Assembly (NCBI GenBank): GCA_035688935.1
Contig: DASSMI010000035.1
Span: 1-43,278 of the forward strand
Reading direction: 5' to 3'
DNA: 43,278 nt
Source of the DNA: Candidatus Limnocylindrales bacterium
Lineage (GTDB): Bacteria; Chloroflexota; Limnocylindria; Limnocylindrales; CSP1-4
The position numbers and the translations under genes were made by a program. Within the stretch, counting starts at the first letter, position 1, and each line of letters begins with the position of its first letter. Positions 18,501 through 36,828 of this stretch are shown here, piece by piece. A model generated the notes under the pieces. The model made no database searches. It had not been told where the DNA came from and saw nothing but the letters and a program-made list of their open reading frames with translations.

Positions 18501-18902
18501 ATGAAGAAGATCCTCCTGGCGTTCGATGGCGGCGAGCCCGCCCATCGCGCCCTCGATCTGACCGTCGATCTCGCCCGCCAGTTCGGCGCCGGGGTGACGG
18601 TCGTCAGCGTCACCCCGGTCCATCCGGGCCGCGTGCCCGTGGATCCGTGGGACGACCGCCCCGTCCATCTGCAGGAGCTGGCCGAGGCGCAGCAGCTTCT
18701 GCGTCAGCGCGGCATCGAGCCGCACCTCCTCGCGCCGACCGGCGAGCCGGCTCCGACGATCGAGCGGATCGCCACCGAGGGCGAGTTCGACGCGGTCATC
18801 CTCGGTTCGCGCGGCCTCGGCGCGATCTCACGCTTTCTGCAGGGCAGCGTGTCCGAGCACGTCGCAGCTCACGGCGAGAGCACGGTCATCGTCGCTCGCT
18901 GA
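18501..18902 (+). CDS. Universal stress protein (single USP domain)
   Basis: 133-aa ORF: MKKILLAFDGGEPAHRAL...AVILGSRGLGAISRFLQGSVSEHVAAH. AAAGGAG lies upstream of the ATG. Confidence 0.9.
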   Translation: MKKILLAFDGGEPAHRALDLTVDLARQFGAGVTVVSVTPVHPGRVPVDPWDDRPVHLQELAEAQQLLRQRGIEPHLLAPTGEPAPTIERIATEGEFDAVILGSRGLGAISRFLQGSVSEHVAAHGESTVIVAR

Positions 18903-18916
18903 GGGAGGCGATCCCC

Positions 18917-18946
18917 GAAGGACCCGCCCGGTCGGGCGGGCCCTTC
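18917..18946. terminator. Bidirectional terminator-like hairpin between the convergent USP genes
   Basis: GAAGGACCCGCCC-ggtc-GGGCGGGCCCTTC pairs 12 of 13 bp with a 4-nt loop. It lies 15 nt after the stop at 18902 and 53 nt after the stop at 18999. Confidence 0.45.
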
Positions 18947-18998
18947 GATTCCCGGGCCGGGTCGGCGGCGAACCCCAGGTTGCCGGCCGGCGCCCGGG

Positions 18999-19973
18999 TC
19001 AGTGCGTTGCCAGCGAATGGATCGCGGCGCTCGCGGGGTTCGCGGCGACGCGCGGCCGTCCGACCGGTTCGGCGTGACGGCGGACGATCAGGACCGACGA
19101 GACGGCGTTGTCGAGCACGTCCCGGGCGACGCTGCCGAGGACGACCCGGGTGATCCCGGTCCGACCGTGGGACCCGAGGATCACGAGATCGGCGCCCCAG
19201 TCCCGGGCGAAGGCCGTGATCGCGGCGGCCGCCGGCCCGCTGAGAACCTGGGCCCGGGCAGCCAGACCCGCGGCGGACAGGCGGTCGGCCGCGACGTTCG
19301 CGATCCGCTCGTGCTCCGCGCGGTCGGCGGCGTCGGTCTGGACATCCTCGAGCGCATCCGGTGGGATGCCCGGGATCATCTCGCTCGGCCAGGGGCTCGG
19401 ATGGTCGGCCGCGACGCTCGCGACGCGGATCTCGGTGGTCGCGAGGAAGGGCCATCGGGCGATGGTCGCGATGGCCTCGTCCGCGATCTCGGACCCATCC
19501 GTGGCGACGACGACCCGCTCCAGCCGGTCGCCCCGAGCGACGAGGACCGGGACGGGAGACCGATCGACCAGGGCGCTGGAGATCGAGCCGAGCACGATCC
19601 GCCGGAGGCCGCCGAGGTGGCGCGACCCGGTGACGACGAGGTCCGGCCGGTCGCGCTCGATTCGATCGACGAGGACGTAGCGCGCCTCGCCGCGCAGGAC
19701 GACGGTGAGGGCGTCGAGCCCGTGAGCGCGGAGGCGCTCGGCGACCTCGTCGAGCGCCGCCTTCGCCGCGAGCACCCGGGCGAGGTCATCCTCGGCCGCG
19801 ATCGTGGCGGCGGCCGACGGGGTGGGCCATGGGCCGACCGGAAGCTCGGCCAGCTCGGGCTCGATGACGGTCACGAGCTCGATCGACGAGCCGACCGGCC
19901 ATGCCGCCCGCTCGACCAACCGCGCCGCGACCGCGGCGCCCTCGGATGCATCGTAGGCAAGCAGGATTCGCAT
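18999..19973 (-). CDS. Tandem universal stress protein (two USP domains)
   Basis: 324 aa from MRILLAYDASEGAAVA... It has two ATP-loop-like segments, VVTGSRHLGGLRRIVLGSISSALV and LVILGSHGRTGITRVVLGSVARDVL. GAGGAGG lies upstream of ATG 19973. Confidence 0.88.
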   Translation of the reverse strand: MRILLAYDASEGAAVAARLVERAAWPVGSSIELVTVIEPELAELPVGPWPTPSAAATIAAEDDLARVLAAKAALDEVAERLRAHGLDALTVVLRGEARYVLVDRIERDRPDLVVTGSRHLGGLRRIVLGSISSALVDRSPVPVLVARGDRLERVVVATDGSEIADEAIATIARWPFLATTEIRVASVAADHPSPWPSEMIPGIPPDALEDVQTDAADRAEHERIANVAADRLSAAGLAARAQVLSGPAAAAITAFARDWGADLVILGSHGRTGITRVVLGSVARDVLDNAVSSVLIVRRHAEPVGRPRVAANPASAAIHSLATH

Positions 19974-19998
19974 CAGGACACCTCCTCGCTCGACGATC

Positions 19999-20796
19999 TC
20001 AGGACCGCCCCGCCGGGACCACTGCCGAACGGCCCTCCGCACGGGGCCGTGTGTCGCAACGTCGGCCGGTACCGTCCGGCTCGGCGCGTTCGTCCGTCCC
20101 GCCACGGGTCGGCCGGAGCCGGTCGCCGGCCGCCCATGCGTCCGGATGCTCGGCCTCGAGCCGCACCGCCTCGCCGCGGACGAGGCAGGCGAGGTCCTGG
20201 TACACCGAGCGGATGGCCGGCGTCGTCCGGAGCTGCTCGCGGGCGTCCCGGAGGAACGCCGCGTAGCGCGCCAGCGGCTCGGCCGCGGCGAGCTCGGCCT
20301 CGAAGCCGCGCCGGAGGTCGACGGCGAGCCGCAACCGGCCGAACCAGGCGCCGATCGCTTCGGCGCCCTCGTCGACGCCCTGGGAGTGGCCGCCGCGGCG
20401 GACGATCGGCGCCGGCGAGACGAACCGGACGACGACTGCGTCGCCGACCCGGTCGGCCTCGACCCGGCCACCGAAGGTCAGGTACTCGTTCGTGGCGCCG
20501 AGGCGATCGACGATCCGGATCAGCCCCCACGAGAACGCTTCGGCGAGGGGCGGGCTCGAGTCGCGCGGAAAAGTCCGGCGGCGCCCGTGTCCGTCGGCGG
20601 TGATCCAGTACGTGACCGCCTCGGGATCGAAGTGGCGGAACGTCGGTCGATCGCGGATCGCGACGAGGAGGAGTCCCGGGCCGGGACGGTCGGGAAGGTC
20701 CGCGACCGCCAGGAAGCCGAGCCTCGAGAGGCGATCGGCGGCGACGCCCGGCGTGATCCGGCCGGGAGCGTCCCGGAACGCGATCCTCGGCGGCAC
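19999..20796 (-). CDS. Hypothetical protein (no recognisable domain)
   Basis: 265-aa ORF with balanced composition (W, F, Y, D, E present), co-directional and tightly spaced between the hemerythrin and tandem-USP genes. The C-terminal 40 aa are low complexity, so the true stop and function are uncertain. Confidence 0.5.
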   Translation of the reverse strand: MPPRIAFRDAPGRITPGVAADRLSRLGFLAVADLPDRPGPGLLLVAIRDRPTFRHFDPEAVTYWITADGHGRRRTFPRDSSPPLAEAFSWGLIRIVDRLGATNEYLTFGGRVEADRVGDAVVVRFVSPAPIVRRGGHSQGVDEGAEAIGAWFGRLRLAVDLRRGFEAELAAAEPLARYAAFLRDAREQLRTTPAIRSVYQDLACLVRGEAVRLEAEHPDAWAAGDRLRPTRGGTDERAEPDGTGRRCDTRPRAEGRSAVVPAGRS

Positions 20797-20800
20797 GGCG

Positions 20801-21265
20801 TCAGTCCGATCGGCTCGCGGCCGGCTCGTCGAGGATCGGCAGGAGGAACCGTTCCTCCCGCTCGATGTGGGCGCGGAGGAGCGCCTCCAGCCCGAAGAGG
20901 TGACAGCGGAGCTCGTCGTGCTCGAGAGCCGGAACCTGACGGAGCGACGCTCGATCGGTCCGGATCCGCTCGGTCAGGGACCGGATCTGCTGGTGGTCGA
21001 ACCGCGCCGGCCGGGTCGCCCACGGCGTCCCGACTCGTGCGTCGATCTCGGGGTACAGCCAGCGGTCCTCCCAGACGAGGTGTGGCTCGAGCATCTCATC
21101 GAGCCAGTGGAGGACATCGAGGACGTGGATCGACAGCTCGGGCGCAGCGTCGAAGCCGATCCCGCAGGCGACGTCGTGGATCCGGTTCAGGCCGCGGATC
21201 AGGTCCCGGTGCTCGTGGTCGGCGAACACGCGGGCGGGCTGCAGCTCGTTCATCTGGGTCGTCAT
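20801..21265 (-). CDS. Hemerythrin (HHE cation-binding) domain protein
   Basis: 154-aa ORF. His/Glu ligand spacing is typical of hemerythrin-like domains: FADHEHRDLIRGL..., HVLDVLHWLDEMLEPH...WEDRWLYPEID, LLRAHIEREERFLLP. GGGAG lies 7 nt upstream of the ATG. Confidence 0.85.
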   Translation of the reverse strand: MTTQMNELQPARVFADHEHRDLIRGLNRIHDVACGIGFDAAPELSIHVLDVLHWLDEMLEPHLVWEDRWLYPEIDARVGTPWATRPARFDHQQIRSLTERIRTDRASLRQVPALEHDELRCHLFGLEALLRAHIEREERFLLPILDEPAASRSD

Positions 21266-21303: not shown

Positions 21304-21411
21304 GCCTGCTGTGACGATCCGCTGCAGCAGCCCCAGCGACCAGAGCCAGACGTCACGCGGCGACGGCCCTCATGGCCCCTGCCGGGGACGGGCGTCAGGA
21401 TCGGGCTGCCG

Positions 21412-22182
21412 TCAGATCGTCTCGTTGGCGATCCGGACCTGGCGGCCGGTCCAGCTGATAAGACGTCGGAGCTGGTCCCGGTCGAGCCGATCGCAGGCGA
21501 ACGCCCAGTGGATCGACACGACGTCGCCGGGCGCCACATCGCGGACGAACCCGACGCCGTCGCGCCACGCCTCGACGCGTTCCGGGCGCGGCGGTCCGAG
21601 GTGGAGCCGGCCGCCGGAGAGGAGGAGGGGAACGGCGTCGACGACGAGGGACGACCCGTCGCGCTCGAGGACGCGACCCCACCGGATCCGGCAGGCGTCC
21701 ATCACCTCCAGCGCGCGGTCGACGGCGCCCGACCGCATCAGCCCGATCCGAGGGAAGACGTCGAGGACATGGAATGCGTGGACGGGCGCCGCCCCCGCCT
21801 CGGGCTTTCCGGCCAGCCAGCGCCAGCCATCGGGCCGCAGCCGGGGCCGGAACCGATGGGTCAGGGAAGCGCGGAGCGCGTCGGGGGTCACCCGATCCAG
21901 GAGCGAGCTGCCCAGCCAGTACGCCTCGACGACCCGGCGGTCGAGCGGATCGCCGATCCCGTTCGAGCGAGCGATGAGCTCGAGGTACGGCCATGCGCCC
22001 TCGAACCCGGCCGCCAGCGCTCGCAGTGCCGGATCGCCGGTGCCGCTGGTCGCCTCGCCGAGCAGCTCGGCGGCGGCATCGGGGCCGCAATATCCGAGCT
22101 GGTTCGGCGGGAAGGCGTACCGCGCGAACAGGACCGGGCCCGACACCGGCAATGCGGCCGTTGCCCGGGCGGCCTCAGCCAT
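21412..22182 (-). CDS. Conserved-looking uncharacterised protein with HypC/HupF-like C-terminal segment
   Basis: 256 aa from MAEAARATAALPVSGPVLFARYAFPPNQLGYCGPD... ATG 22182 overlaps the EamA stop by 8 nt (ATGGCTGA). The C-terminal segment CRIRWGRVLERDGSSLVVDA...APGDVVSIHWAFACDRLD parallels the neighbouring HypC (MCIGYPGRVIDLDATGATVV...VGDWVTVAAGAIVARLE). Confidence 0.65.
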   Translation of the reverse strand: MAEAARATAALPVSGPVLFARYAFPPNQLGYCGPDAAAELLGEATSGTGDPALRALAAGFEGAWPYLELIARSNGIGDPLDRRVVEAYWLGSSLLDRVTPDALRASLTHRFRPRLRPDGWRWLAGKPEAGAAPVHAFHVLDVFPRIGLMRSGAVDRALEVMDACRIRWGRVLERDGSSLVVDAVPLLLSGGRLHLGPPRPERVEAWRDGVGFVRDVAPGDVVSIHWAFACDRLDRDQLRRLISWTGRQVRIANETI

Positions 22183-23158
22183 CGGATGGCTCAGGGGCGA
22201 GCCGGCGAGCGGTCGCCGATGCGACGCCTCGAGCCGCGGCTCGGGCCCACCCGACGACGAGCACGGATGCAGCCACGATCGCGCCGAACCCGACGAGCGC
22301 GGACCCACTGGGAGCCGTCCCGCTCGTCGCCGCAGACAGGCCGCCCGTCACGACCGCGCCCAGCACCAGGACGCTCGTCACGACCGTCGCCGGCGCGCGG
22401 CGCAGCGCGGCGAACCAGGTTGCGACGTAGCCGGCCAGGATCGCCCCGGTGAGGGCGACCCATGCCCAGCCGGCGGGCGTGACGGCGGCCACTCCGGTGG
22501 CACGTCCGGTGACGACGAGGAACCCGGCGAGCAGGACGACCCCGAGACCCATGCGGAGCGTCGCGAGGACGCCCGTCGGAGTCGTGCCGAGGAGGCGCCG
22601 GACGAGGACGGTCTCGATCGCCCAGAGGAGCGTGGCCGCGAGGATCATCGTCTCGCCCGGACCCCAGACGATCCCCCGCGGCGGGAGGACCAGCGCCTGG
22701 CCGAGGAGCAGACCGGCAAGGCCGACGACCAGGGCGATCCCCGCTCGCTCGCCGAGGACGGGGAGGGCGAGCAGGGCCACCCATAGGACGAGGGTCTTGT
22801 GGATGACGGCGGCGCTCGGCGCGCTCGCCGCGGCCAGGCCGGTGAAGAACAGCACGAACGGCACGCTCCCGCCGACCACACCCACGGCGAGGATCGCGGG
22901 CCAGCGGGCGGCCGGGATCGCGCGGATGCCCGTCATGCCGCGCGGCCCGAGAAGGCCGAGGAGCACGACGGCCGCGACGGCGTTCTTCAGGGTCGTGTAC
23001 ACGGCGGGATCGGGGACCTGGCGCACGGCGAATGCGTTCAGGTAGACCGCGACGCCGCTGACGAGCGCGGCACCGATCGCGAGAGCGATCCCGGCATCGA
23101 GGCTGTCGGGCAGCCAGGGCGGCGACGGTCGGCGAGGAACGACGATCTGGGGGCGCAT
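22175..23158 (-). CDS. EamA/DMT-superfamily permease (about 10 TM)
   Basis: 327 aa from MRPQIVVPRR... It has two repeated 5-TM EamA-like halves and is highly hydrophobic. ATG 23158 shares one nt with the hypC stop (TGATG). Confidence 0.82.
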   Translation of the reverse strand: MRPQIVVPRRPSPPWLPDSLDAGIALAIGAALVSGVAVYLNAFAVRQVPDPAVYTTLKNAVAAVVLLGLLGPRGMTGIRAIPAARWPAILAVGVVGGSVPFVLFFTGLAAASAPSAAVIHKTLVLWVALLALPVLGERAGIALVVGLAGLLLGQALVLPPRGIVWGPGETMILAATLLWAIETVLVRRLLGTTPTGVLATLRMGLGVVLLAGFLVVTGRATGVAAVTPAGWAWVALTGAILAGYVATWFAALRRAPATVVTSVLVLGAVVTGGLSAATSGTAPSGSALVGFGAIVAASVLVVGWARAAARGVASATARRLAPEPSDG

Positions 23159-23433
23159 CAGGGTCTCCTTGGATGAGCGAAGGGCGTTGGTTCCGTGCGT
23201 CTCGTCCCGGCGGCCGCGGCGCGCCGCTCGGCGGCTCGCAGGCGGCGCCGGATCCAGGCGGCATCGGCGGGTTCGAGTCGGGCGACGATCGCACCGGCCG
23301 CGACCGTGACCCAGTCGCCGACCCGGACGTCGGGGACGACGACGGTCGATGCCCGCCGCGTGCGGCCCTCGGTGACGACGGTCGCTCCGGTCGCGTCCAG
23401 GTCGATGACCCGGCCCGGGTACCCGATGCACAT
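23158..23433 (-). CDS. hypC: [NiFe]-hydrogenase assembly chaperone HypC/HupF family
   Basis: 91-aa ORF beginning MCIGYPGRV (canonical N-terminal Cys motif), followed by ...VGDWVTVAAGAIV. Confidence 0.85.
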   Translation of the reverse strand: MCIGYPGRVIDLDATGATVVTEGRTRRASTVVVPDVRVGDWVTVAAGAIVARLEPADAAWIRRRLRAAERRAAAAGTRRTEPTPFAHPRRP

Positions 23434-23436
23434 CGG

Positions 23437-23976
23437 TCAGGTCCGAAGCCGAGCCACGGCGTCGCGAACGGCGTTGACCATCCGCGGGACGGCCCGGGCC
23501 ACGGAAGGGCTGAGGCCCGCGCCGAGCGTGAAGCGGACGCCGCCCACGGCGATGATCCGGCCCTCGAGCGGGCGACCGCGGATCATGTCGGCGACGCCGA
23601 TCACCTCGCGGAACTCGAGGGCATGCGACGACCTGGGCCGGAGCCGGTCCTCGCGTCCGATCATCCCGGTGAGCGGCAGCTCGACGATGTGGCCGCCGCG
23701 CACGCCCGTCGCGGCGTCGACGACGATCACCGCGCCGCCCGGCGGGACGTCGAGCAGGTGATCGACCTCGAGCTGACCGACGACGCGGATCCGGGCACCG
23801 GCCGGCAGCGACCGCTCCAATGCCTCCGCGACGACCAGCCCGACCGCATCGTCGCCGCGGTCCGGCGATCCGCAGGCGAAGATCTCCACCCCGATCGGTC
23901 GTGCTCCGGCGAGACCTTGCCCGGACCGGGAACGGGTGACGTGGGGATCGACGGGGGCACGGGCGACGGGCGTCAT
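23437..23976 (-). CDS. Hydrogenase maturation endopeptidase (HybD/HyaD/FrhD-like)
   Basis: 179 aa from MTPVARAP... Motifs are CGSPDRGDDAVG, AVIVVDAA and SSHALEF. ATG 23976 shares one nt with the large-subunit stop. A later start is possible. Confidence 0.8.
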   Translation of the reverse strand: MTPVARAPVDPHVTRSRSGQGLAGARPIGVEIFACGSPDRGDDAVGLVVAEALERSLPAGARIRVVGQLEVDHLLDVPPGGAVIVVDAATGVRGGHIVELPLTGMIGREDRLRPRSSHALEFREVIGVADMIRGRPLEGRIIAVGGVRFTLGAGLSPSVARAVPRMVNAVRDAVARLRT

Positions 23977-25349
23977 CAGGACACCTCCTCCAGCGTGAGA
24001 TCGAGGAAGTGGGTGGCACAGCTGATGCACGGGTCGTAGCTGCGGATCAGCTGCTCGAGCCGGAGAACCGCCTCGGCGCGCGGCAGGCCGAGCACGGATG
24101 GAGCGAACGCGGCCAGGTCGGCTTCGATCGCCGCCTGGTTCTGGCTCGTGGGCGGCACGATCCGCGCGCTCGCGACGAGTCCTCGGTCGTCGAGCTCGTA
24201 GGCGTGGAAGATCAGGCCGCGTGGCGCCTCCGTCGCCCAGGCTGCGGTCGCCGGGCCGGCGGACCACGGCACGCGGGCGTCCGCGGCGGGTGCCCAGGTC
24301 TCGACGAGGTCGATCGCCTCGGCCACGGCGTCGACGATCTCGATCGCCCGGGCGACGACGCTCCGATAGGGGTTGGTCGCGATCTCCGTCGCGAGGCCGG
24401 TCCGCGTCAGCGCCGCCGCGGCCAGCGGATGGAGCCGGTCGCCGGCGAGCGCCAGCCGGCTCGAGGGACCCAGCAGGTAGGCCCGGCCATCGAGGTCGCG
24501 CGCCTGGAGCGCATGGGACCACGGCACCTGGGTCTCGGCGAAGGCCGAGGTCCACGCGGTCGGCGGAATGTCGAGCCCGGCCGTCGACACGATCCGGCCC
24601 TCGTTCATGGGGTACTCGGTCGGATGCCGGAGCGCCACGAGCGGCCCGGATCGGGTGAACGCCGGCGTCGGCAGATCGGCGACGAGATCGACGGTCCGCT
24701 CGGCGATCCGGAGGGCCGTCTCGAGCGGCTCGCGGAGGGCCCGGATCTCCGATCGTCGGAACGTCCGGGAGAAGCCACCGACGCGGACCGAGACCGGATG
24801 GATCGCCCGGCCACCGATGACCTCGACGATCCGGTTGCCCGTCTTCTTCAGCGCGAGCCCGGCTTCCACGGCGTCGCGCCGGTCGCGGGCGAGCTCGAGG
24901 GCGCTCGGGTAGCCCAGGAAGTCGGGGAGGTGCAGCAGGTAGACGTGGAGCGCGTGGCTCTCGATCCACTCGCCGCAGTACAGCAGACGTCGGAGGGCGC
25001 GGACGGCGGGATCGATCGTGATCCCGAGCCCCGCCTCGAAGGCGTGGACCGCGGTCACCTGGTAGGCGACCGGGCAGATGCCGCAGATCCTCGCGACGAT
25101 GTCGACCACCTCGTCGGGCCGGCGTCCGACCACGAGCTGCTCGAAGTACCGAGGCGCCTCGAAGATCTGGAGGTGGGCCTCTTCGACCTGTCCGTCACGA
25201 ACGCGCAGACGGAGGGATCCCTCGCCCTCGACCCGCGTCAGTCCCGCCACGTCGACCGTCAGGTCGCCGGGCGCCGAGCCGCCGAGCCCGGAGCCGCCGA
25301 GCCCCGAGCCGCCGAGCCCCGAGCCGCCGGTTCCGTCGAGGTCATGCAT
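23976..25349 (-). CDS. [NiFe]-hydrogenase large (alpha) subunit, group 3 (3b-like)
   Basis: 457 aa from MHDLDG... The N-terminal Ni-Fe ligands are RICGICPVAY and the C-terminal ligands are DPCISCATH. A 10-aa tail (FLDLTLEEVS) follows, suitable for endopeptidase cleavage. ATG 25349 overlaps the small-subunit stop by 8 nt (ATGCATGA). Confidence 0.93.
   Translation of the reverse strand: MHDLDGTGGSGLGGSGLGGSGLGGSAPGDLTVDVAGLTRVEGEGSLRLRVRDGQVEEAHLQIFEAPRYFEQLVVGRRPDEVVDIVARICGICPVAYQVTAVHAFEAGLGITIDPAVRALRRLLYCGEWIESHALHVYLLHLPDFLGYPSALELARDRRDAVEAGLALKKTGNRIVEVIGGRAIHPVSVRVGGFSRTFRRSEIRALREPLETALRIAERTVDLVADLPTPAFTRSGPLVALRHPTEYPMNEGRIVSTAGLDIPPTAWTSAFAETQVPWSHALQARDLDGRAYLLGPSSRLALAGDRLHPLAAAALTRTGLATEIATNPYRSVVARAIEIVDAVAEAIDLVETWAPAADARVPWSAGPATAAWATEAPRGLIFHAYELDDRGLVASARIVPPTSQNQAAIEADLAAFAPSVLGLPRAEAVLRLEQLIRSYDPCISCATHFLDLTLEEVS
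25275..25328 (-). repeat. 15-nt tandem repeat (about 3.6 copies) encoding (GGSGL)n at the N-terminus of the hydrogenase large subunit
   Basis: The minus strand reads ggcggctcggggctc twice, then ggcggctccgggctc, then ggcggctcg. This translates to GGSGLGGSGLGGSGLGGS (residues 8-25). Confidence 0.9.
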
Positions 25350-28175: not shown

Positions 28176-28651
28176 CGGCGGGACTCCGCTCCGCTGCCGT
28201 ACAGGTCGAGGAGCTGGAGGCGCGTCGTGGCGAGTCGCCGCGCGACGCAGGCCAGCAGCTGGCGATAGACCGCCGCGGCGAGCTCGGGGTCGGCTTCGAG
28301 CGCCGCGCACAGGCCGAACGCCTCGAACAGGATCGCCCGGCATGGGGTGGCGGCGACGCACGTGGAGCTGGCGGGCGTCCCGGGAAGGGCTGCCGACCAA
28401 CCGAAGACGTCGCCGCGATCGATCGTCAGGATCGTCCTGGGGTGGCTCGGCGGGATGCCCAGTCGCAGCGCGACTCGGCCGTCGAGGACGATTCCCATCG
28501 CCTCGCACGGCTGCCCCTCGCGGATCACGACGGTCCCTTCCCGGAGCTGGACGACGGTGCCGACCGCCGCCAGCCGGGCGCGAGCGGTGACGGGGAGGTT
28601 CGCGCCGAACCAGGTCTCGCCGAGCAGCGACGTCAGCGTCGAGGTCTCCAT
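28172..28651 (-). CDS. Stand-alone cyclic-nucleotide-binding (CAP effector-type) domain protein, no HTH
   Basis: 159 aa from METSTLTSLLGETWFG... The beta-roll pattern is VQLREGTVVIREGQPCEAMGIVLDGRVAL...ILTIDRGDVFGWSAAL...ATTRLQLLDLY. It is the first gene of the hydrogenase string. Confidence 0.8.
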   Translation of the reverse strand: METSTLTSLLGETWFGANLPVTARARLAAVGTVVQLREGTVVIREGQPCEAMGIVLDGRVALRLGIPPSHPRTILTIDRGDVFGWSAALPGTPASSTCVAATPCRAILFEAFGLCAALEADPELAAAVYRQLLACVARRLATTRLQLLDLYGSGAESRR

Positions 28652-28694
28652 GGGCCCAGCGTCGGGAGGGCACGGGGGGTCGAACAAGGGCCCA

Positions 28695-28736
28695 CCGTCC
28701 CGGCACGACGGGCCATCCGGCCCTCCGCCGGGACGG
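28695..28736. promoter_or_regulatory. 9-bp inverted repeat CCGTCCCGG-N24-CCGGGACGG in the divergent hydrogenase/PFOR spacer
   Basis: The arms at 28695-28703 and 28728-28736 are exact reverse complements. The repeat sits inside the 108-nt spacer 28652-28759, 24 nt upstream of the PFOR ATG. Two GGGCCC hexamers lie at 28652 and 28688. Function is inferred only. Confidence 0.35.
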
Positions 28737-28759
28737 CCTTTCGTCGCCACCATCGGAGC

Positions 28760-30736: not shown

Positions 30737-31152
30737 ACGCCGTCCTCGAACCGCGGACCGTGGGGGAGCTGATGACCCGCGATCCGATCCTCGCCCACCT
30801 GGACATGGCCCTGTCCGATGCCGCCGACCTCATGGACTTCTACCGGGTGACGGGGCTCCCGGTCGTCGACTCGAGCGGCGCGCTGTGCGGGGTCATCAGC
30901 CAGACCGACCTCCTCCATGCCCGGACCACCGAGGCGCTCTGGGCCGCCTGGCCGGGACTCGCCGTGCGCCATCTCATGACGTCTCCGGCGGTCACCGTGA
31001 CGGCCGGTACGTCGGTCGACGAAGCGGCGGCGTTGATGGAGCGTCTCCGGATCCATCGGGTGGTCGTCACCGACATCTCGGGCGAGGTCACGATCGGCAT
31101 CCTCGCCGTCGCGGATCTCGTCCGGGCGATGGCCGAGCGAGGCCCGGCGTGA
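30733..31152 (+). CDS. Stand-alone CBS-pair protein
   Basis: 139-aa ORF with two CBS motifs (VGELMTRDPILAHLDMALSDAADLM...GLPVVDSSGALCGVISQTDLL and VRHLMTSPAVTVTAGTSVDEAAALM...HRVVVTDISGEVTIGILAVADLV). ATGA overlaps the upstream gene and GTGA overlaps the downstream gene. Confidence 0.88.
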   Translation: MNAVLEPRTVGELMTRDPILAHLDMALSDAADLMDFYRVTGLPVVDSSGALCGVISQTDLLHARTTEALWAAWPGLAVRHLMTSPAVTVTAGTSVDEAAALMERLRIHRVVVTDISGEVTIGILAVADLVRAMAERGPA

Positions 31153-32834
31153 CCGAGCTCGGGCGGCACGACCTGGCGGCCCCGATCCTGAAGGAGCCGG
31201 GCGAGCCCAAGGAGATCCACGAGACGCGGTTCGCGCCGGCCTCGACCGTCCTCGACGTCCATGCCTACGTCGACGACTTCAACAGCTCGATCGTCGACGC
31301 CTATCGACGCGGCGTGGCCGATCGCGACCTGCCGGCCGACAGCGGCGTCGCCAGGAGCGTCGTCCCGCCGGGCACGGCGGCGATCCGCGACTTCAGCGGC
31401 CTCGCGCCGCGCATCCCGGAGCTCGTCCTCGACGCGTGCGTCGGCTGCATGTCGTGTGTCAACGCCTGTCCCGACAGCGCGATCCTCGGGATCGCCCAGC
31501 CGGCGTCCGTCCTCGATCCGGCGATCGACGCATTCGCCTCGGCCGAGTCCGACCCGGCCCGCGCGACGGCGGCCGGCCGGTCCCACTTCACGAGGACGAC
31601 GAAGTACGCCGACGTGCCCGCGAAGCGCGGCCTCGAGCCCGCCCAGTTCGGGATCTTCGTGGACCCGGTCCATTGCAAGGGCTGCGCCGAGTGCGTCGAG
31701 GTCTGTCACGCGCTCGGCTACGACGCGCTCCGGATGATCGACAAGCAGCCGCTCGAGCCGAGCGGGGAGGGGACCGTGGAGCGGTACCTCCGCGACATGC
31801 GGCTCTTCCGATCGCTCCCGCCCACGCCGCCGGAGTACCGCAACGAGAAGGCGCTCGCGGACCTGATGCTCGGCGAGCACGCGTTCGGCTACACGGGTGG
31901 CGCCGGCTCGTGCTCCGGCTGCGGCGAGGCCACGGCGATCCGGATGCTCGTCGCCGCGACTCGCGGGACGAGCGGCCCGGATTCGATGGCGATCGTCGCC
32001 GCGACGGGCTGCAACACCGTGTTCGGGAGCACGTATCCGTTCAATCCCTACCTCGTCCCGTGGACGAACTCGCTGTTCGAGAACGCGCCCGCCGTGGCGC
32101 TCGGGATCCGGACGCGCTGGGAGCAGGCCGGCCATCCCGAGCGGCGCCTGTGGGTGCTCGGCGGCGACGGCGCGATGTACGACATCGGCTTCCAGTCGCT
32201 GTCGCGCCTCGTCGCGTCCGGGGCCGACGTCAAGGTCCTGGTCCTCGACACGCAGGTCTACTCGAACACGGGCGGGCAGGCGTCCACGGCGTCGTTCGGC
32301 GGCCAGGTGACGAAGCTGTCGGCCTACGGTCACGACCTCCACGGCCGGCCCGAGCCGCGCAAGGAGCTGGGCCGCATCCTCGTCGCCCACGGCAATGCCT
32401 ACGTCGCCCAGACGACGCCGGCCCATGTCAACCACTTCTACCGCTCGATCCTGGAGGCGAACGCCTACCCGGGTCCGGCCGTCGTGATCGCCTACTCCGC
32501 CTGCATGCCCGAGCACGGGATCGCCGACGACGCCGCGACCCGCGAGGCGAAGCTGGCCGTGGACACCCGGGCATTCCCGCTCTTCACGTACGACCCGCGC
32601 CGGGGCGACACGATCGCCGAGCGGCTGTCTCTCCAGGGCAACCCGGCCCTCCGCGCCGACTGGGCCGCCGAGCCCGACGGGACAACGATCGACTTCCTCG
32701 CATTCGCCCGCGCCGAGGGCCGGTTCGCGCCGCACTTCGGCGCCGACGGGACGCCTTCGGCCGAGATCCTCGCCACACGGGACGACCGGCTGGCGAACTG
32801 GCGGACCCTCCAGGAGCTGGCTGGGCTGCGCTGA
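31149..32834 (+). CDS. Pyruvate:ferredoxin/flavodoxin oxidoreductase, C-terminal part (2x[4Fe-4S] ferredoxin domain + TPP-binding domain, delta+beta equivalent)
   Basis: 561 aa from GTG 31149. Motifs are CVGCMSCVNACPDSAI, CKGCAECVEVCHALGY, GAGSCSGCGEAT and the TPP motif GGDGAMYDIGFQSLSRLVASGADVKVLVLDTQVYSNTGGQ. Confidence 0.9.
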   Translation: MTELGRHDLAAPILKEPGEPKEIHETRFAPASTVLDVHAYVDDFNSSIVDAYRRGVADRDLPADSGVARSVVPPGTAAIRDFSGLAPRIPELVLDACVGCMSCVNACPDSAILGIAQPASVLDPAIDAFASAESDPARATAAGRSHFTRTTKYADVPAKRGLEPAQFGIFVDPVHCKGCAECVEVCHALGYDALRMIDKQPLEPSGEGTVERYLRDMRLFRSLPPTPPEYRNEKALADLMLGEHAFGYTGGAGSCSGCGEATAIRMLVAATRGTSGPDSMAIVAATGCNTVFGSTYPFNPYLVPWTNSLFENAPAVALGIRTRWEQAGHPERRLWVLGGDGAMYDIGFQSLSRLVASGADVKVLVLDTQVYSNTGGQASTASFGGQVTKLSAYGHDLHGRPEPRKELGRILVAHGNAYVAQTTPAHVNHFYRSILEANAYPGPAVVIAYSACMPEHGIADDAATREAKLAVDTRAFPLFTYDPRRGDTIAERLSLQGNPALRADWAAEPDGTTIDFLAFARAEGRFAPHFGADGTPSAEILATRDDRLANWRTLQELAGLR

Positions 32835-32852
32835 GCCAGCGATCGCCGGTCC

Positions 32853-32874
32853 GATCGGGCCGAGTCGCCCGATC
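32853..32874 (+). terminator. Hairpin after the PFOR operon
   Basis: GATCGGGC-cgagtc-GCCCGATC is an 8-bp perfect stem that begins 19 nt after the stop at 32834 and is followed by CCTTGA. Confidence 0.4.
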
Positions 32875-32972
32875 CCTTGAGGCCCGACGGCTCTGGCGGG
32901 GCGCTCGGTCGGACCCGACACTCGAGACCGGTGGGCGCCCGGAGCGGCGTCCACGCGAAAGGAGGCAGATCG

Positions 32973-33284
32973 ATGGATCTTGCCATCAGCATCGGGATCG
33001 GAGGCTGGATCCTGCTCATCGCGGCCGCGCTGATCGTCGGCGTCGCCATGCAGTTCCTCGGACGGGGCTCGACCTACGGCTTCGCGATCGACGCGTTCGC
33101 CGTCGCGCTCGGGGCCCTCTTCGCCAGCGAGATCGTGGTTGCCTGGCGAACAGTCGAGCCGGTCTGGGATGGCCTGGCGCTCGTTCCGGCAGTGCTCGGC
33201 GGCCTTGCCGTCGGCGCCGTCGTGGACCTGCTGACCCGCTATCTGATCGGTGGGCAATCGGCCGGGCGGCCGATGTCGGCGTGA
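32973..33284 (+). CDS. Small membrane protein, GlsB/YeaQ/YmgE (transglycosylase-associated) family-like
   Basis: 103 aa from ATG 32973, with AAAGGAGG 7 nt upstream: MDLAISIGIGGWILLIAAALIVGVAMQFLGRG... It has 3-4 Gly-rich TM helices. Confidence 0.6.
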   Translation: MDLAISIGIGGWILLIAAALIVGVAMQFLGRGSTYGFAIDAFAVALGALFASEIVVAWRTVEPVWDGLALVPAVLGGLAVGAVVDLLTRYLIGGQSAGRPMSA

Positions 33285-33311
33285 TCGGGACCACACCCCG
33301 CGCGTCGACCA

Positions 33312-33345
33312 GGGAGGGCGACGGCCGAGAGGCCGCCGCCCTCCC
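33312..33345 (+). terminator. Strong GC hairpin with GAGA tetraloop between glsB-like and flavodoxin-like genes
   Basis: GGGAGGGCGACGGCC-gaga-GGCCGCCGCCCTCCC pairs 14 of 15 bp. It begins 28 nt after the stop at 33284 and ends 4 nt before the GGAGGAGG SD of the next gene. There is no U-tract. Confidence 0.45.
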
Positions 33346-33363
33346 GTCATGGAGGAGGCTCGG

Positions 33364-33897
33364 ATGAGAGCAGTCGTCGTCTTCGAATCGATCTGGGGCA
33401 ACACCGCGGCCATCGCCGAGGCGATCGCCGAAGGGCTCGGCGGGGACGCCCGGGCGCTTCCGACGGACGAGGCGACCCGCGAGGTGGTCGGCGCGGCCGA
33501 TCTCGTGGTCGCCGGCGCACCGGTCATGGCCTTCCGCCTGCCGACCGACGGCATGCGAAGCCGGCTCCTCGCGGGCCACGATGACGCCCCGCGTCCGGCG
33601 GACACCTCCCACCCATCGATGCGCTCGTGGCTGGAGAACGTGCCGGTCAGCCAGGCCTGGATGGCGGCATTCGAGACGCGCCTGCATTGGTCGCCGGGTG
33701 GCTCGACCGGCACGATCGAGCGGATCCTGGGACGGGCCGGGTTCCGGCGGGTCGGCCGCGCCGCCAAGTTCTTCGTGACCGGGACGTACGGCCCGCTCAA
33801 GGACGGCGAGCTCGAGCGGGCTCGCGCGTGGGGTCGCGAGCTGGCCGCTGCCGCCGGGGTCGGCGCCCGAGGGCGCGAGGTCGCCGCGGCCCGCTAG
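33364..33897 (+). CDS. Flavodoxin-like fold protein
   Basis: 177 aa from MRAVVVFESIWGNTAAIAEAIAEGL... The phosphate-loop-like SxWGNT is followed by ADLVVAGAPV. GGAGGAGG lies upstream of ATG 33364. Confidence 0.72.
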   Translation: MRAVVVFESIWGNTAAIAEAIAEGLGGDARALPTDEATREVVGAADLVVAGAPVMAFRLPTDGMRSRLLAGHDDAPRPADTSHPSMRSWLENVPVSQAWMAAFETRLHWSPGGSTGTIERILGRAGFRRVGRAAKFFVTGTYGPLKDGELERARAWGRELAAAAGVGARGREVAAAR

Positions 33898-34031
33898 GCG
33901 CCGCCAGGGTCGGCCGCCAGCCGGCGCCCCGGCCCGTGGGGCCTCGGTCCTGGCCGAACGGGCGGATCGGCCCGTCCATCTGGGGCCGATGTCCCTGTCC
34001 CCATCTCCGTCCGCGGCGATACGGTGAGCCC

Positions 34032-34541
34032 ATGGAACCGATCCGCATCCGGCCGATCCGGCCCACCGACGCCGCGGGCCTCGAGGCGTTCTACCGCGAG
34101 CTGGGCGACGAGAGCCGGCGCCTCCGGTTCTTCGGCGTCACCGCCGGCCTGAGCGGCACCCAATCGACGAGGTTCTGCTCGACCGATCATGCTCATCGCG
34201 AAGGGTTCGTCGCGACGATCCGGGAACCAGGCAGGCCGCACGGCGAGCGGATCGTGGGCCACGTCTGCCTCGAACCGGCAGGTCCCGGCCGAGCGGAGGT
34301 GGCGATCGCGGTGTCCGATGCGGTCCAGCGCCAGGGGATCGGGACCAGCCTGATGCGCGCCGCGATCGGCTGGGCGCGACGACACCGGATCTCGACGCTC
34401 AGCGCAACGATGCTCCCGACGAACCCGGCGATCCACGGACTCCTCCGCTCGCTCGGCTTGCCGGCGCGGAGCCGTCCGACCGAGCTCGGCACGATCGCCC
34501 TCGATCTCGCGGTCGATCCCGGGCCGGCGCTGGCCGCATGA
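34032..34541 (+). CDS. GNAT family N-acetyltransferase (resembles the GNAT domain of Pat-type protein lysine acetyltransferases)
   Basis: 169 aa from MEPIRIRPIRPTDAAGLEAFYRELGDESRRLRFFG... The acetyl-CoA loop is VSDAVQRQGIGTSLMRAAIGWA. Confidence 0.82.
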   Translation: MEPIRIRPIRPTDAAGLEAFYRELGDESRRLRFFGVTAGLSGTQSTRFCSTDHAHREGFVATIREPGRPHGERIVGHVCLEPAGPGRAEVAIAVSDAVQRQGIGTSLMRAAIGWARRHRISTLSATMLPTNPAIHGLLRSLGLPARSRPTELGTIALDLAVDPGPALAA

Positions 34542-34554
34542 TCGCGATCCGAAC

Positions 34555-35826
34555 GTGAAGGTCGTCACGGCCGCGGAAGCGGTCGCCGGCATCGGGTCCG
34601 GCCAGCGTGTGTACCTGCAATGTGCCGCCGCGACGCCCGAGGTGCTCCTCGATGCGCTGGTCGCGCGGGCGCCCGAGCTCCGGGACGTGGAGGTGGTCCA
34701 TCTCCACATCGAGGGTCCCGGTCCGCACCTCGCACCGGAGATGGCGGGCCACTTCCGGCATCGCGCGCTGTTCATCGGTCCGAACGCGCGCCAGGCCGTC
34801 AACGAGGGTCGCGCCGACTTCGTGCCCATCTTCCTGTCCGACGTGCCGCGGCTGTTCGACTCGGGCGCCCTGCCGCTGGATGCGGTCTTCGTGAACGTGA
34901 CGCCGCCCGACGAGCATGGCTTCTGCTCGCTCGGGACGTCGGTCGAGGCGATGCACGCGGCGATCCGGTCGGCGCGAACCGTGATCGCCCAGCTGAACCG
35001 GGCGATGCCGCGGACGCTCGGTGACAGCTTCATCCACGTCTCCCAGATCGATCTCGGCGTCGAGGTCGACCAGCCGCCGTACGAGCACGAGATCGGACCG
35101 ATCGGACCCGTGGAGCGCCGGATCGGCGAGCATGTGGCCGCGCTCGTCCCCGACGGGGCGACGATCCAGCTCGGGATCGGCGGGATCCCGGCGGCCACCG
35201 CGCTGTTCCTCCGTGACAAGCGTGATCTCGGCATCCATACCGAGATGTTCACGGACAGCGTCGTCGACCTCGTGGAGGCGGGCGCCGTCACCGGCGCCCG
35301 GAAGGATCGCAACCGCGGCAAGATCGTCACCGCGTTCGTCCTCGGCAGCCGCCGCCTCTACCGCTTCATCCACGACAACCCGATGATCGAGATGCGGCCG
35401 GTCGACTTCACGAACGACACCCACGTGATCCGGTCCTTCTCGAGGATGCGGGCGATCAACTCGGCGATCGAGGTCGACCTGACCGGCCAGGTGGTGGCCG
35501 ACTCGATCGGTCATCGGATGTACAGCGGCGTGGGCGGCCAGATGGACTTCGTCCGTGGTGCCGCGCTCGCCGAGGACGGCCGGGCGATCATCGCCCTCCC
35601 CAGCACGGCAGGCGACGGCGGGATCAGCCGGATCGTGCCCGCGCTCCGTGAGGGCGCCGGCGTGGTCACGACCCGCGCGCACGTGCGCACGGTGGTCACC
35701 GAATGGGGCGTCGCGGAGCTCTTCGGACGGAGCCTCCGCGAACGGGCGAAGGCCCTGATCGCGATCGCCCATCCCGACCATCGCGACGCGCTCCTCGCCG
35801 CGGCCCGCAGCCTCCACGAGATCTAG
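34555..35826 (+). CDS. Acetyl-CoA hydrolase/transferase family enzyme (4-hydroxybutyrate / succinate:acetate CoA-transferase-like)
   Basis: 423-aa ORF with a GTG start. Motifs are AAEAVAGIGSGQRVYLQCAAATPEVLLDAL, FIGPNARQAVNEGRADFVPIFLSDVP, GIGGIPAA, EMFTD and SGVGGQMDFVRGA. Confidence 0.9.
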   Translation: MKVVTAAEAVAGIGSGQRVYLQCAAATPEVLLDALVARAPELRDVEVVHLHIEGPGPHLAPEMAGHFRHRALFIGPNARQAVNEGRADFVPIFLSDVPRLFDSGALPLDAVFVNVTPPDEHGFCSLGTSVEAMHAAIRSARTVIAQLNRAMPRTLGDSFIHVSQIDLGVEVDQPPYEHEIGPIGPVERRIGEHVAALVPDGATIQLGIGGIPAATALFLRDKRDLGIHTEMFTDSVVDLVEAGAVTGARKDRNRGKIVTAFVLGSRRLYRFIHDNPMIEMRPVDFTNDTHVIRSFSRMRAINSAIEVDLTGQVVADSIGHRMYSGVGGQMDFVRGAALAEDGRAIIALPSTAGDGGISRIVPALREGAGVVTTRAHVRTVVTEWGVAELFGRSLRERAKALIAIAHPDHRDALLAAARSLHEI

Positions 35827-35946
35827 GCCCGACGGTCGAATCCCGGACGGTCACGGGCCGTTCGTCATCCCCCTTCCTGCCGGACGGGTCTGGGTCCGTC
35901 GGAGGCCGGGTGGTGTGATGGGCGTGTCACCGAACGGAGGTGCCTG

Positions 35947-36111
35947 TTGCTGACCCGTCGCGGCGTCCGCGGGACGCCGGGGATCCCGGTCGTGTTCGCG
36001 ATCGGGCTCGCGATCGCCGCCGCGGCCGTCGCATGGGGCCGGCCCACGTTCGCCGCCTGGCGTCGCCTCCGGCCGCGCACGGTCGACCTCCGCCGGCCGA
36101 TCCACAGATGA
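35947..36111 (+). CDS. Possible 54-aa single-TM protein upstream of the CBS-BON gene
   Basis: Below the ORF-track size cutoff. TTG 35947 is preceded by GGAGG with a 6-nt spacer. It translates to LTRRGVRGTPGIPVVFAIGLAIAAAAVAWGRPTFAAWRRLRPRTVDLRRPIHR with high GC3. The stop lies 9 nt before the next ATG. Unverified. Confidence 0.3.
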   Translation: MLTRRGVRGTPGIPVVFAIGLAIAAAAVAWGRPTFAAWRRLRPRTVDLRRPIHR

Positions 36112-36120
36112 GGTGATCCG

Positions 36121-36828
36121 ATGCTCACGATCCGTGACGTGATGACCGAATCGGTCATCACCGTCGAACCGGCGACGCCGCTGAAGGACGTCGCCCAGCT
36201 CCTCGTCGACCGGAGGATCAGCGGGCTCCCGGTCGTGGATGCCGAGGGCTCGGTCCTCGGCATCGTCTCCGAGGCCGACCTCCTGCTCAAGGAGCAGGGT
36301 GCCGAGTCGGTCGGGCGGCGGCGCTTCGCCTGGCTGCTCGGCGACGACGCGGCCACTCGCTCGCGGCGCGCGAAGCTGGCCGCGACGACGGCCGGCGCGG
36401 CGATGACCGCTCCGGCCGTCACCGTCAGCCCCGCCACCGCGCTGGCGGCTGCCGCGGAGCTGATGACGACGTACGGCGTCAATCGCCTGCCGGTCGTCGA
36501 GGACGGCCGACTCGTGGGCATCGTCACGCGCGCAGACCTCGTCCGTGCGTTCGTGCGGTCCGACGAGGAGCTCACCGCCACGATCCGCGACGAGATCCTG
36601 CGGCGGGTCCTGTGGCTCGATCCGGCCGCCTTCCGCATCGACGTGCACGACGGCGTCGTGACGATCCGCGGACACGCCGAGCGCCGCTCCACATCGCTCG
36701 CGGTGGAGGCGGCCATCGCGATGGTCCCCGGCGTGGTCGGCGTGGACGCCGAGATCCCGTACTCACTCGACGATCGGACCCTCGAGCCCGCCTCCCTCGA
36801 CCCGGTGTTCCCGTTCGGACCGCGCTGA
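36121..36828 (+). CDS. CBS-pair + BON domain protein
   Basis: 235-aa ORF with two CBS motifs (IRDVMTESVITVEP...GLPVVDAEGSVLGIVSEADLL and AGAAMTAPAVTVSP...RLPVVEDGRLVGIVTRADLV). A BON-like segment follows: RIDVHDGVVTIRGHAERRSTSLAVEAAIAMVPGVVGVDAEI. Confidence 0.88.
   Translation: MLTIRDVMTESVITVEPATPLKDVAQLLVDRRISGLPVVDAEGSVLGIVSEADLLLKEQGAESVGRRRFAWLLGDDAATRSRRAKLAATTAGAAMTAPAVTVSPATALAAAAELMTTYGVNRLPVVEDGRLVGIVTRADLVRAFVRSDEELTATIRDEILRRVLWLDPAAFRIDVHDGVVTIRGHAERRSTSLAVEAAIAMVPGVVGVDAEIPYSLDDRTLEPASLDPVFPFGPR

Follow-up and report, generated by a model that had tools for sequence, protein, structure and literature searches.

In Mycobacterium smegmatis, the group 3b [NiFe]-hydrogenase Hyh is a fermentative enzyme activated by DosS/T-DosR (bioRxiv 10.1101/2023.09.11.557286), and group 3b hydrogenases in general are described as NADP-coupled and bidirectional (PMC7325909). 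Here we describe a gene cluster built around a hydrogenase of this group and a split pyruvate:ferredoxin oxidoreductase (PFOR) on contig DASSMI010000035.1 of a Candidatus Limnocylindrales bacterium, the whole of which (43,278 bp) was analysed and is called the window below. Two strings of genes, 11 leftward on the minus strand and eight on the plus strand, diverge from one 108-nt spacer. We consider it probable that the cluster is a low-oxygen and redox-stress survival island of aerobic Limnocylindria, resembling a DosR regulon, in which the group 3b hydrogenase and a dedicated PFOR partner dispose of pyruvate electrons as H2.

The window shares several features with the Hyh/DosR system of M. 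smegmatis. Both involve a hydrogenase of the same class and a bc1-aa3 respiratory chain, the Hyh host being an obligately aerobic soil bacterium, and universal stress proteins (USPs) and other dormancy-type genes lie around. Relatives of the window carry DevS-like haem-GAF kinases and DevR-like regulators beside the cluster, and the putative cis element has the same form, a 14-bp palindrome GGG-N8-CCC. The window differs in phylum and class (Chloroflexota, Limnocylindria), in the box itself (GGGCCGWWCGGCCC versus the mycobacterial GGGACTWWAGTCCC), in the fusion of HydB with HydG and in a cyclic nucleotide (cNMP)-binding protein heading the operon. It also physically integrates a PFOR and a CoA-transferase, which is not reported for the mycobacterial locus; the legend of the metabolic scheme in the Hyh paper lists pyruvate dehydrogenase (PDH), and PFOR does not appear (bioRxiv 10.1101/2023.09.11.557286). 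Judged from its sequence, the cluster is best read as a hypoxia module of the Hyh/DosR type from another phylum, equipped with a partner PFOR and an altered putative operator.

For each of the four hydrogenase subunit domains, the nearest relatives that have been characterised and solved are the soluble sulfhydrogenases SHI and SHII of Pyrococcus furiosus and Thermococcus (HydBGDA, ShyBCDA), in which alpha, beta, gamma and delta modules are likewise combined and the flavin subunit binds NAD(P). These are, however, enzymes of archaeal hyperthermophiles in which beta and gamma are separate, whereas they are fused in the window, and the window proteins score far under the NCBIfam equivalog cut-offs. 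We know of no PFOR in SHI or SHII operons.

The first-pass annotation had called the gene set hydrogenosome-like. Hydrogenosomes employ a ferredoxin-fed [FeFe]-hydrogenase together with a transferase of the Ach1 or acetate:succinate CoA-transferase (ASCT) type. The label captures the overall chemistry only: as in hydrogenosomal and clostridial fermentation (PFOR, ferredoxin, [FeFe]-hydrogenase, and ASCT or phosphotransacetylase-acetate kinase), pyruvate would be converted into acetyl-CoA and CO2 with the electrons leaving as H2, and CoA would be recycled by a member of the acetyl-CoA hydrolase/transferase superfamily. The enzymes themselves differ. The hydrogenase is an NADP-type [NiFe] enzyme of group 3b, not a ferredoxin-fed [FeFe] one; the transferase falls in the 4-hydroxybutyrate CoA-transferase branch (2.4e-157) and not with Ach1/ASCT (~1e-12), and its identity as a hydrogenosomal, Ach1-like ASCT was rejected on these values; the cluster holds no succinyl-CoA synthetase or acetate kinase; and the host respires O2.

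In the one literature collection that we searched, where absence is no proof of novelty, we found nothing directly relevant to a link between PFOR and group 3b hydrogenases, to the hydrogenase physiology of Limnocylindria/Ellin6529 or among recent work on sulfhydrogenase structure; neither a split PFOR associated with CBS nor a Limnocylindria system of the DosR type was described there.

The group 3b hydrogenase and the split PFOR

Plain lists of open reading frames are useless on this contig because its G+C content is about 73%; genes were called via third-position GC, and their identities come from Pfam, NCBIfam and PDB searches. The gene content and the two divergent strings reported in the first-pass annotation were reproduced in this way. 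For comparison, the window proteins were mapped by tblastn onto 80 hydrogenase-centred genome loci, seven contigs with closer homologues and 80 split-PFOR-centred metagenome loci, cited below by L numbers. The hydrogenase operon and the PFOR genes are arranged as follows.

28652-28759, divergent spacer of 108 nt, between the minus-strand ATG at 28651 and the plus-strand ATG at 28760
28172-28651, minus strand, stand-alone cNMP-binding protein, first gene of the operon (Pfam cNMP_binding, 3.5e-13)
26199-28193, minus strand, fused HydB (Fe-S) and HydG (FAD/NAD(P)-binding, 2Fe-2S) diaphorase (Pfam Fer4_22, NAD_binding_1 and DHODB_Fe-S_bind)
25342-26202, minus strand, hydrogenase small (delta) subunit (Pfam Oxidored_q6; NCBIfam best ShyD/HydD)
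23976-25349, minus strand, [NiFe]-hydrogenase large subunit, group 3b (NCBIfam best ShyA/HydA sulfhydrogenase alpha)
23437-23889, minus strand, hydrogenase maturation endopeptidase (NCBIfam TIGR00072, 73.6 bits against a cut-off of 47.45)
23158-23433, minus strand, HypC maturation chaperone (Pfam HupF_HypC, 1.4e-15)
22175-23158, minus strand, EamA-family membrane transporter (Pfam EamA in two stretches, 2.5e-23)
21412-22308, minus strand, DUF6390 protein (Pfam DUF6390, 2.6e-84)
28760-30736, plus strand, N half of the split PFOR, domains I, II and III (Pfam POR_N, PFOR_II and POR)
30733-31152, plus strand, CBS-pair protein between the PFOR halves (Pfam CBS twice, 2e-27)
31149-32834, plus strand, C half of the split PFOR, a ferredoxin domain with two [4Fe-4S] clusters and a thiamine pyrophosphate (TPP)-binding domain (Pfam Fer4 families and TPP_enzyme_C)

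The four hydrogenase subunit domains named in the first-pass annotation are all present, in three genes instead of four, since beta and gamma are fused. In the fusion, NCBIfam places HydB/ShyB over residues 118-370 and HydG/ShyC over residues 428-653, and the fused form (~660 aa) is retained in L082 and L084-L087. All four domains find their best NCBIfam matches in Pyrococcus/Thermococcus sulfhydrogenases. In the PDB, the large subunit matches sulfhydrogenase 1 alpha at 3.4e-63, ahead of Mvh (group 3c, 4.3e-43), NAD-reducing (3d, 1.7e-41) and Frh (3a, ~1e-36 or weaker) enzymes, and groups 1 and 2 reach no better than ~1e-24. The NCBIfam scores rank alike, with 255 bits for ShyA and 224 for HydA compared with 141 for VhuA and 139 for FrhA, the ShyA score being well under its equivalog cut-off of 700. 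The active-site motifs RxCGxC and DPCxxCxxH are complete, and R87, C89, G90, C92, D439, P440, C441, C444 and H447 are invariant in an alignment of 16 sequences. These sequence comparisons support the assignment to group 3b made in the first pass. At 457 aa, the large subunit is 16 residues longer than its 441-aa relatives, and the extra residues lie near the N-terminus. The cNMP-binding protein carries no helix-turn-helix domain detectable with Pfam.

Both PFOR halves align with the single-chain, NifJ-type PFORs of Desulfovibrio africanus and Moorella thermoacetica (best PDB match of the N half, D. africanus PFOR, 4.6e-83; C half against PFOR, 1e-44), with the same domain order, I-II-III and then V-VI. 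Read off the HMMER alignments, the N half retains Thr31, Arg114, Leu121 and Ile123, and the C half Asn996, the GDG motif, the proximal-cluster cysteines and two ferredoxin-type cluster motifs; Thr31, Arg114, Ile123 and Asn996 are what we take to be the pyruvate-site residues of the D. africanus crystal structures. The CxxCxxCxxxCP-type motifs and the CSGCGE, ATGC and AC cysteines of the C half likewise align to D. africanus PFOR. With its pyruvate- and cluster-binding residues kept in both halves, the enzyme upholds the first-pass call as a PFOR. It differs from the NifJ type in being split after domain III with a CBS-pair gene between the halves, in an insertion within the ferredoxin domain and in that neither half has a Pfam match to EKR (domain IV). 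Because its halves sit in two genes, diverge in sequence and score 374 and 207 bits, under the cut-off of 911 for the NCBIfam equivalog TIGR02176, we file the enzyme as a divergent, split PFOR-like variant by sequence and not as that equivalog. The nearest fused PFORs in a library of 1.84 billion proteins are only 46-48% identical.

Across the window, L085 and L088-L167, a CBS gene separates the two halves in 37 of 42 close loci and in nine of 13 more distant ones (46/55 altogether). From this conservation, the CBS-pair protein is probably a subunit or regulator of the split PFOR; its PDB matches are generic CBS matches only, from which no specific partner can be inferred. The CBS-split unit was also seen in a more distant clade (~55% identity) without a hydrogenase nearby, and PFOR-N/CBS/PFOR-C looks like a general three-part form of the enzyme.

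Linkage in relatives and a shared palindromic box

The gene order cNMP-HydBG-HydD-HydA-protease-HypC-EamA-DUF6390, often followed by the hemerythrin gene and an unknown gene, is conserved in a Limnocylindria-like clade. The cNMP gene likewise comes first in L082-L087 and in 15 of the 25 Chloroflexota loci, the place of EamA within the operon is conserved, and EamA followed by DUF6390 comes after HypC in nearly all relatives.

Split PFOR genes near the operon are 65-82% identical to those of the window, and their placement varies. In seven loci (L007, L010, L100, L109, L110, L124 and L128), the PFOR stands directly 3' of the protease gene on the same strand; in L100 and L128, EamA/DUF6390 lie downstream of it, which puts the PFOR inside the operon, between protease and EamA/DUF6390. 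In L097, HypC-EamA-DUF6390 directly follow the PFOR. Elsewhere the PFOR comes after DUF6390 (L127, L146, L147), is divergent from the operon (the window, L085, L122) or convergent with it (L003, L139). Furthermore, L081-L083, whose hydrogenases are 78-79% identical to that of the window, carry a non-orthologous full-length PFOR (~30% identity, 1201-1216 aa) convergent with the operon.

PFOR genes were present in eight and CoA-transferase genes in 11 of the 32 hydrogenase-centred loci of this clade, and in three and two, respectively, of the 55 from other phyla. Around PFORs at least 65% identical to that of the window (63 loci), hydrogenase-operon genes occurred in 15 loci and a CoA-transferase also in 15; among the 18 loci of this identity with long flanks, eight held hydrogenase-operon genes. 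The 17 loci with PFORs of ~55% identity contained neither. By a rough estimate, chance alone would place a gene with one or two copies per genome of a few Mb inside a 20-kb span in about 1% of cases. Chance does not account for the adjacency of hydrogenase and PFOR, given its recurrence across many related loci in differing arrangements; the linkage of hydrogenase, PFOR, CoA-transferase, USP and CBS genes proposed in the first pass is found again in relatives. The independent arrival of two PFOR types and the position of a PFOR within the operon argue for a functional partnership.

Some loci depart from this layout. In L084 (15343-17292) and L086 (13919-15865), the place behind the hydrogenase operon that PFOR has in other relatives is taken by a 649-aa protein with ferredoxin, Fer4_20 and Pyr_redox_2 domains (GltD/SudA/NfnB-like); by its domains it is a candidate NADPH:ferredoxin link. 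In L090 (7548-8003), L105 (7454-7900) and L130 (5991-6446), the gene that separates the CoA-transferase from the split PFOR is similar to the hydrogenase maturation protease (32% identity), and the available locus sequence showed no structural genes of a hydrogenase; the protease-like gene may be a remnant of a deleted hydrogenase operon. A gene of the DHO_dh (dihydroorotate-dehydrogenase-like) family follows the full-length PFOR in L081 (16076-20715), L082 (15069-19723) and L083 (13918-18584), with L028, L029 and L048 also listed. Enzymes of the DHO_dh type have a partner, PyrK, to which the HydG part of the hydrogenase is similar.

Alignment of the regions upstream of the cNMP gene yielded the 14-bp palindrome mentioned above. 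The pattern GGGMCNNNNGKCCC has four exact matches in the window versus 1.35 expected, two of them in the 108-nt spacer, and a scan with a position weight matrix (PWM) gave six hits versus 2.6 expected, all within 28688-33973. The boxes and near-matches are the following.

28688-28701, spacer box 1, GGGCCCACCGTCCC, exact match
28710-28723, spacer box 2, GGGCCATCCGGCCC, exact match
33781-33794 and 33960-33973, PWM hits upstream of the probable start of the GNAT/CoA-transferase genes
32857-32870, near-match ahead of the small membrane protein gene
18383-18396, near-match (one mismatch) upstream of the single USP
21365-21378, near-match (one mismatch) upstream of the hemerythrin gene

Centre to centre, the two spacer boxes are separated by 22 nt, and the distance from each centre to the nearer ATG is 43.5 nt; a pair with this 22-nt spacing is also present upstream of the PFOR in L090 and L128. 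Across the clade, box density per kb is 2.08 upstream of PFOR-N (a roughly 25-fold enrichment), 1.28 upstream of cNMP, 0.76 upstream of the CoA-transferase and 0.73 upstream of USP, compared with a background of 0.084 and with 0 upstream of the operon-internal genes hydD, hydA, eamA and DUF6390. The cNMP-upstream count is an underestimate; for example, the box of L085 was cut off by the start estimate. Of 62 regions upstream of PFOR-N, 29 hold a box, mostly centred at -45 to -66 from the start. In its architecture (14-bp palindrome, GGG-N8-CCC, two copies in the spacer), the element is like the mycobacterial DosR box, TTSGGGACTWWAGTCCCSAA (PMC2275270).

In the relatives, a GAF-HisKA_3 kinase was found in 10 loci and a NarL-type response regulator in 22, usually in the order kinase-regulator-(FAD oxidase)-CoA-transferase-cluster. 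In the PDB, the best matches of the kinase GAF domain are haem GAF-A domains from M. tuberculosis, those of DevS (9.3e-36) and DosT (3e-34), and the top match of the partner regulator is DevR/DosR (6.4e-46), followed by VraR (3.5e-33). The regulator of L087 was rejected as DevR-like and is generic NarL/VraR-like instead; only the L082-type pair is DevS/DevR-like. Putative co-regulation of both strings, as proposed in the first pass, has in-silico signs in its favour: shared palindromic boxes and DevS/DevR-like genes in relatives.

Other genes of the cluster and the host lineage

The remaining genes of the two strings, together with the single USP and the respiratory genes of the window, are given below.

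18501-18902, plus strand, single-domain USP, USPa (Pfam Usp, 4.6e-26)
18999-19901, minus strand, tandem USP, last gene of the minus string (Pfam Usp in two stretches, 1.9e-40)
19999-20796, minus strand, unknown protein paired with the hemerythrin in many loci
20801-21265, minus strand, hemerythrin-domain protein (Pfam Hemerythrin, 2.7e-13)
32877-33284, plus strand, small membrane protein with three hydrophobic segments
33364-33897, plus strand, flavodoxin-fold protein (AlphaFold2 pLDDT 91.7)
33936-34541, plus strand, Pat-like GNAT acetyltransferase (Pfam Acetyltransf_1)
34555-35826, plus strand, CoA-transferase of the 4-hydroxybutyrate CoA-transferase or butyryl-CoA:acetate type (Pfam AcetylCoA_hydro and AcetylCoA_hyd_C)
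36121-36828, plus strand, CBS-BON protein (Pfam CBS twice and BON)
5902-11864, minus strand, qcrC-qcrA-qcrB-ctaC-ctaD-ctaF, one respiratory string

The CoA-transferase has homologues of 68-83% identity adjoining the hydrogenase or the PFOR in 26 loci. In the PDB it matches 4-hydroxybutyrate CoA-transferases far better than succinyl-CoA:acetate/Ach1 enzymes (1.8e-12 to 7e-23), and it falls under the cut-off of NCBIfam TIGR03948. The product of 33364-33897 can be assigned a flavodoxin fold with confidence from its predicted structure, as the first pass had proposed: the best Foldseek matches are flavodoxins and the flavodoxin domains of flavodiiron proteins (FprA; E ~1e-8), the N-terminal phosphate-binding loop SxWGNT is invariant, and the Pfam score for Flavodoxin_1 (23.1 bits) is just under the cut-off of 25. 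Its role as an FMN-binding carrier is putative, and as a conserved carrier of the cluster it was rejected, with homologues adjoining the cluster only in L011 and L099.

The likeness of the acetyltransferase to Pat was borne out by its best PDB match, the GNAT domain of Streptomyces lividans Pat (8.5e-13); the gene has a probable start at 34032. The small membrane protein, with a probable start at 32973, has no family match, Pfam being empty even at E 0.1, and the earlier label GlsB-like could not be verified from its three hydrophobic segments. CBS-BON homologues occur near the cluster in L004, L006, L081, L085 and L128, and homologues of the tandem USP near split PFOR genes in many loci. Those of USPa (55-75% identity) adjoin the cNMP-hydrogenase operon, mostly divergently, in L004, L006 and L082-L086.

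The DUF6390 protein, listed in the first pass as an unknown protein, probably starts near 22171. Homologues with 35-37% identity were observed ~2 kb downstream of group 3b hydrogenases in two archaeal Thermoplasmata loci (L045, 13568-14290; L064, 13472-14179), and DUF6390 may be a hydrogenase-associated protein. It has no sequence relative in the PDB, and a single-sequence AlphaFold2 model was unusable (pLDDT 48). The protein at 19999-20796 has no Pfam or NCBIfam match; hemerythrin and a partner of ~230-265 aa without family match travel together in L003, L010, L082-L084, L086, L097, L140 and L143.

A FAD_binding_4/BBE oxidase (16929-18314, plus strand) lies directly upstream of the single USP, and a homologue (33% identity) stands between the DevR-like regulator and the CoA-transferase in L090 (4630-5997). 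Just downstream of the plus string are two adjoining flavin-binding proteins of the PNPOx_N family (38483-39588, plus strand), the PNPOx type presumably being also that of a FAD-sequestering protein of M. smegmatis. The latter is among the most induced proteins of the DosR regulon (bioRxiv 10.1101/2023.09.11.557286). At the other end of the window (1-3207, minus strand), the contig end truncates the gene of a GAF-HisKA kinase, and the same region encodes an adenylate/guanylate cyclase (970-1797) and an MgtE transporter with CBS domains. Ligand for the cNMP-binding protein at the head of the hydrogenase operon could come from this cyclase.

The aerobic supercomplex operon was confirmed in the same window, and the presumed actinobacterial host was not. 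All named matches among the top 120 of CtaD are Limnocylindrales or Chloroflexota (68-82% identity), the nearest named relatives of the hydrogenase large subunit are Candidatus Limnocylindrales, and its 25 best genome loci are all from metagenome-assembled genomes of Chloroflexota or Limnocylindria. By these relatives, the host belongs to Limnocylindria (Chloroflexota) and is not an actinobacterium; an actinobacterial origin, at which the Pfam matches to QcrA_N and CtaF hint, is ruled out by CtaD and the hydrogenase. The hallmarks regarded as actinobacterial (QcrA_N domain, dihaem QcrC, CtaF subunit IV) are real, evidently occur in the Limnocylindria lineage too, and probably misled the earlier call. 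In L005, L013 and L015, ctaC/ctaD homologues lie ~1-2 kb downstream of a group 3b hydrogenase operon. Tad/TadE pilus-assembly genes adjoin the cytochrome oxidase string, and the window also encodes a GH25 lysozyme-family protein of 591 aa; these features occupy 3344-5872 (minus strand) and 12569-14344 (plus strand).

Electron path, alternatives and meaning

On the reading that we favour, falling O2 would act through a DevS/DevR-like pair encoded outside this contig, a haem-GAF kinase and a NarL-type regulator, the latter binding the GGGCC-N4-GGCCC palindromes. Both strings would be turned on once the regulator occupies the boxes of the divergent spacer and those ahead of the GNAT/CoA-transferase genes. 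The split PFOR would then oxidise pyruvate to acetyl-CoA and CO2 without forming NADH, its CBS-pair partner probably serving as a subunit that senses adenylate or energy state. The group 3b hydrogenase would release the low-potential electrons as H2, having received them by way of ferredoxin/flavodoxin and NADPH or else straight at its fused HydBG iron-sulfur/flavin subunit. The CoA-transferase would regenerate CoA from acetyl-CoA, while USPs, hemerythrin, CBS-BON and the cNMP-binding protein might tune the module to energy charge, O2 and cyclic nucleotide.

Several points weigh against this reading. The electron path is where it is weakest: group 3b enzymes are described as NADP-coupled (PMC7325909), whereas PFOR reduces ferredoxin or flavodoxin, no ferredoxin:NADP reductase (FNR) and no conserved ferredoxin gene was seen in the cluster, and the flavodoxin-fold gene is not a conserved neighbour. 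The nearest solved relatives of the CoA-transferase act on 4-hydroxybutyrate, and both acetate formation and a gain of ATP are putative. As for regulation, the box of the clade is a putative operator only, differing from the mycobacterial one at four symmetric positions, and no DevS/DevR genes lie within the 43-kb window itself. Finally, the linkage, though frequent, is not universal; loci centred on the hydrogenase show it in 25% of cases, and those centred on PFOR, with long flanks, in 44%.

A bolder version, which we put forward as unlikely but consequential, would remove the need for a soluble carrier. In it, the split PFOR, the CBS-pair subunit and the fused HydBG-HydD-HydA form one 'pyruvate:proton oxidoreductase', in which the ferredoxin domain of PFOR feeds the iron-sulfur chain of HydB directly, bypassing soluble ferredoxin and NADPH, gated by adenylate at the CBS protein and by cyclic nucleotide, and placed under a DosR-type switch outside Actinobacteria. 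If true, direct feeding of HydB by PFOR would make the group 3b hydrogenase a ferredoxin-level H2 valve.

The main rival of the favoured reading, somewhat unlikely yet of appreciable weight, is a regulon island without direct coupling. The genes would then share one low-oxygen regulator and nothing more; the hydrogenase would serve to reoxidise NAD(P)H that general catabolism produces, a role proposed for Hyh in mycobacteria, and PFOR would separately replace pyruvate dehydrogenase and pass its electrons to unrelated acceptors. The NADP coupling of group 3b enzymes (PMC7325909) and the lack of a conserved ferredoxin or FNR gene in the cluster fit this view. So do the varying position and orientation of PFOR, the missing linkage in 24 of 32 hydrogenase-centred loci, the GltD/SudA-like gene that stands in for PFOR after the operon of L084 and L086, and the kinase-regulator-CoA-transferase-PFOR sets of L090, L105 and L130, in whose available sequence no hydrogenase structural genes were detected. 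The view accounts poorly for the seven loci in which PFOR directly follows the protease on the same strand, including L100 and L128 with PFOR between protease and EamA/DUF6390, and for the two non-orthologous PFOR types that each came to adjoin the operon; both kinds of layout typify functional partners more than genes that are simply co-regulated.

Less likely, and in our view quite improbable, is the reverse direction, in which the hydrogenase takes up H2, PFOR acts as a pyruvate synthase (acetyl-CoA and CO2 to pyruvate) and the CoA-transferase activates acetate, giving H2-supported assimilation in microoxic conditions. PFOR and CoA-transferases are reversible enzymes, and group 3b hydrogenases are described as bidirectional (PMC7325909). 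Against this, the path from H2 via NADPH to reduced ferredoxin runs uphill unless electrons are bifurcated, and a module for bifurcation was not seen; the surrounding USPs, hemerythrin, CBS proteins and DevS/DevR-like regulators fit a dormancy or hypoxia regulon; and in the sole precedent from the physiology of aerobes, a group 3b hydrogenase evolves H2 (bioRxiv 10.1101/2023.09.11.557286). A sulfhydrogenase that mainly reduces elemental sulfur or polysulfide with NADPH among unrelated neighbours, as the best-matching characterised enzymes from Pyrococcus and Thermococcus might suggest, is hardly probable at all, given scores far under the equivalog cut-offs (255 bits versus 700), a cluster with no sulfur-metabolism genes and a recurrent PFOR, CoA-transferase and regulator context that it leaves unexplained.

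Limnocylindria (formerly Ellin6529) are reportedly abundant in soils and fresh waters, with few cultured members, and how such aerobes survive waterlogging and anoxic microsites is poorly known. The survival island that we favour suggests that the mycobacterial strategy of a DosR-type switch and a group 3b hydrogenase as redox valve exists in a second phylum, where the module would add a named electron source, pyruvate, through a dedicated PFOR. The conserved palindrome may help to predict the hypoxia regulon from genomes and metatranscriptomes of Limnocylindria. Finally, how electrons from PFOR would reach a hydrogenase class that is considered NADP-coupled matters for estimating H2 production in oxic soils.

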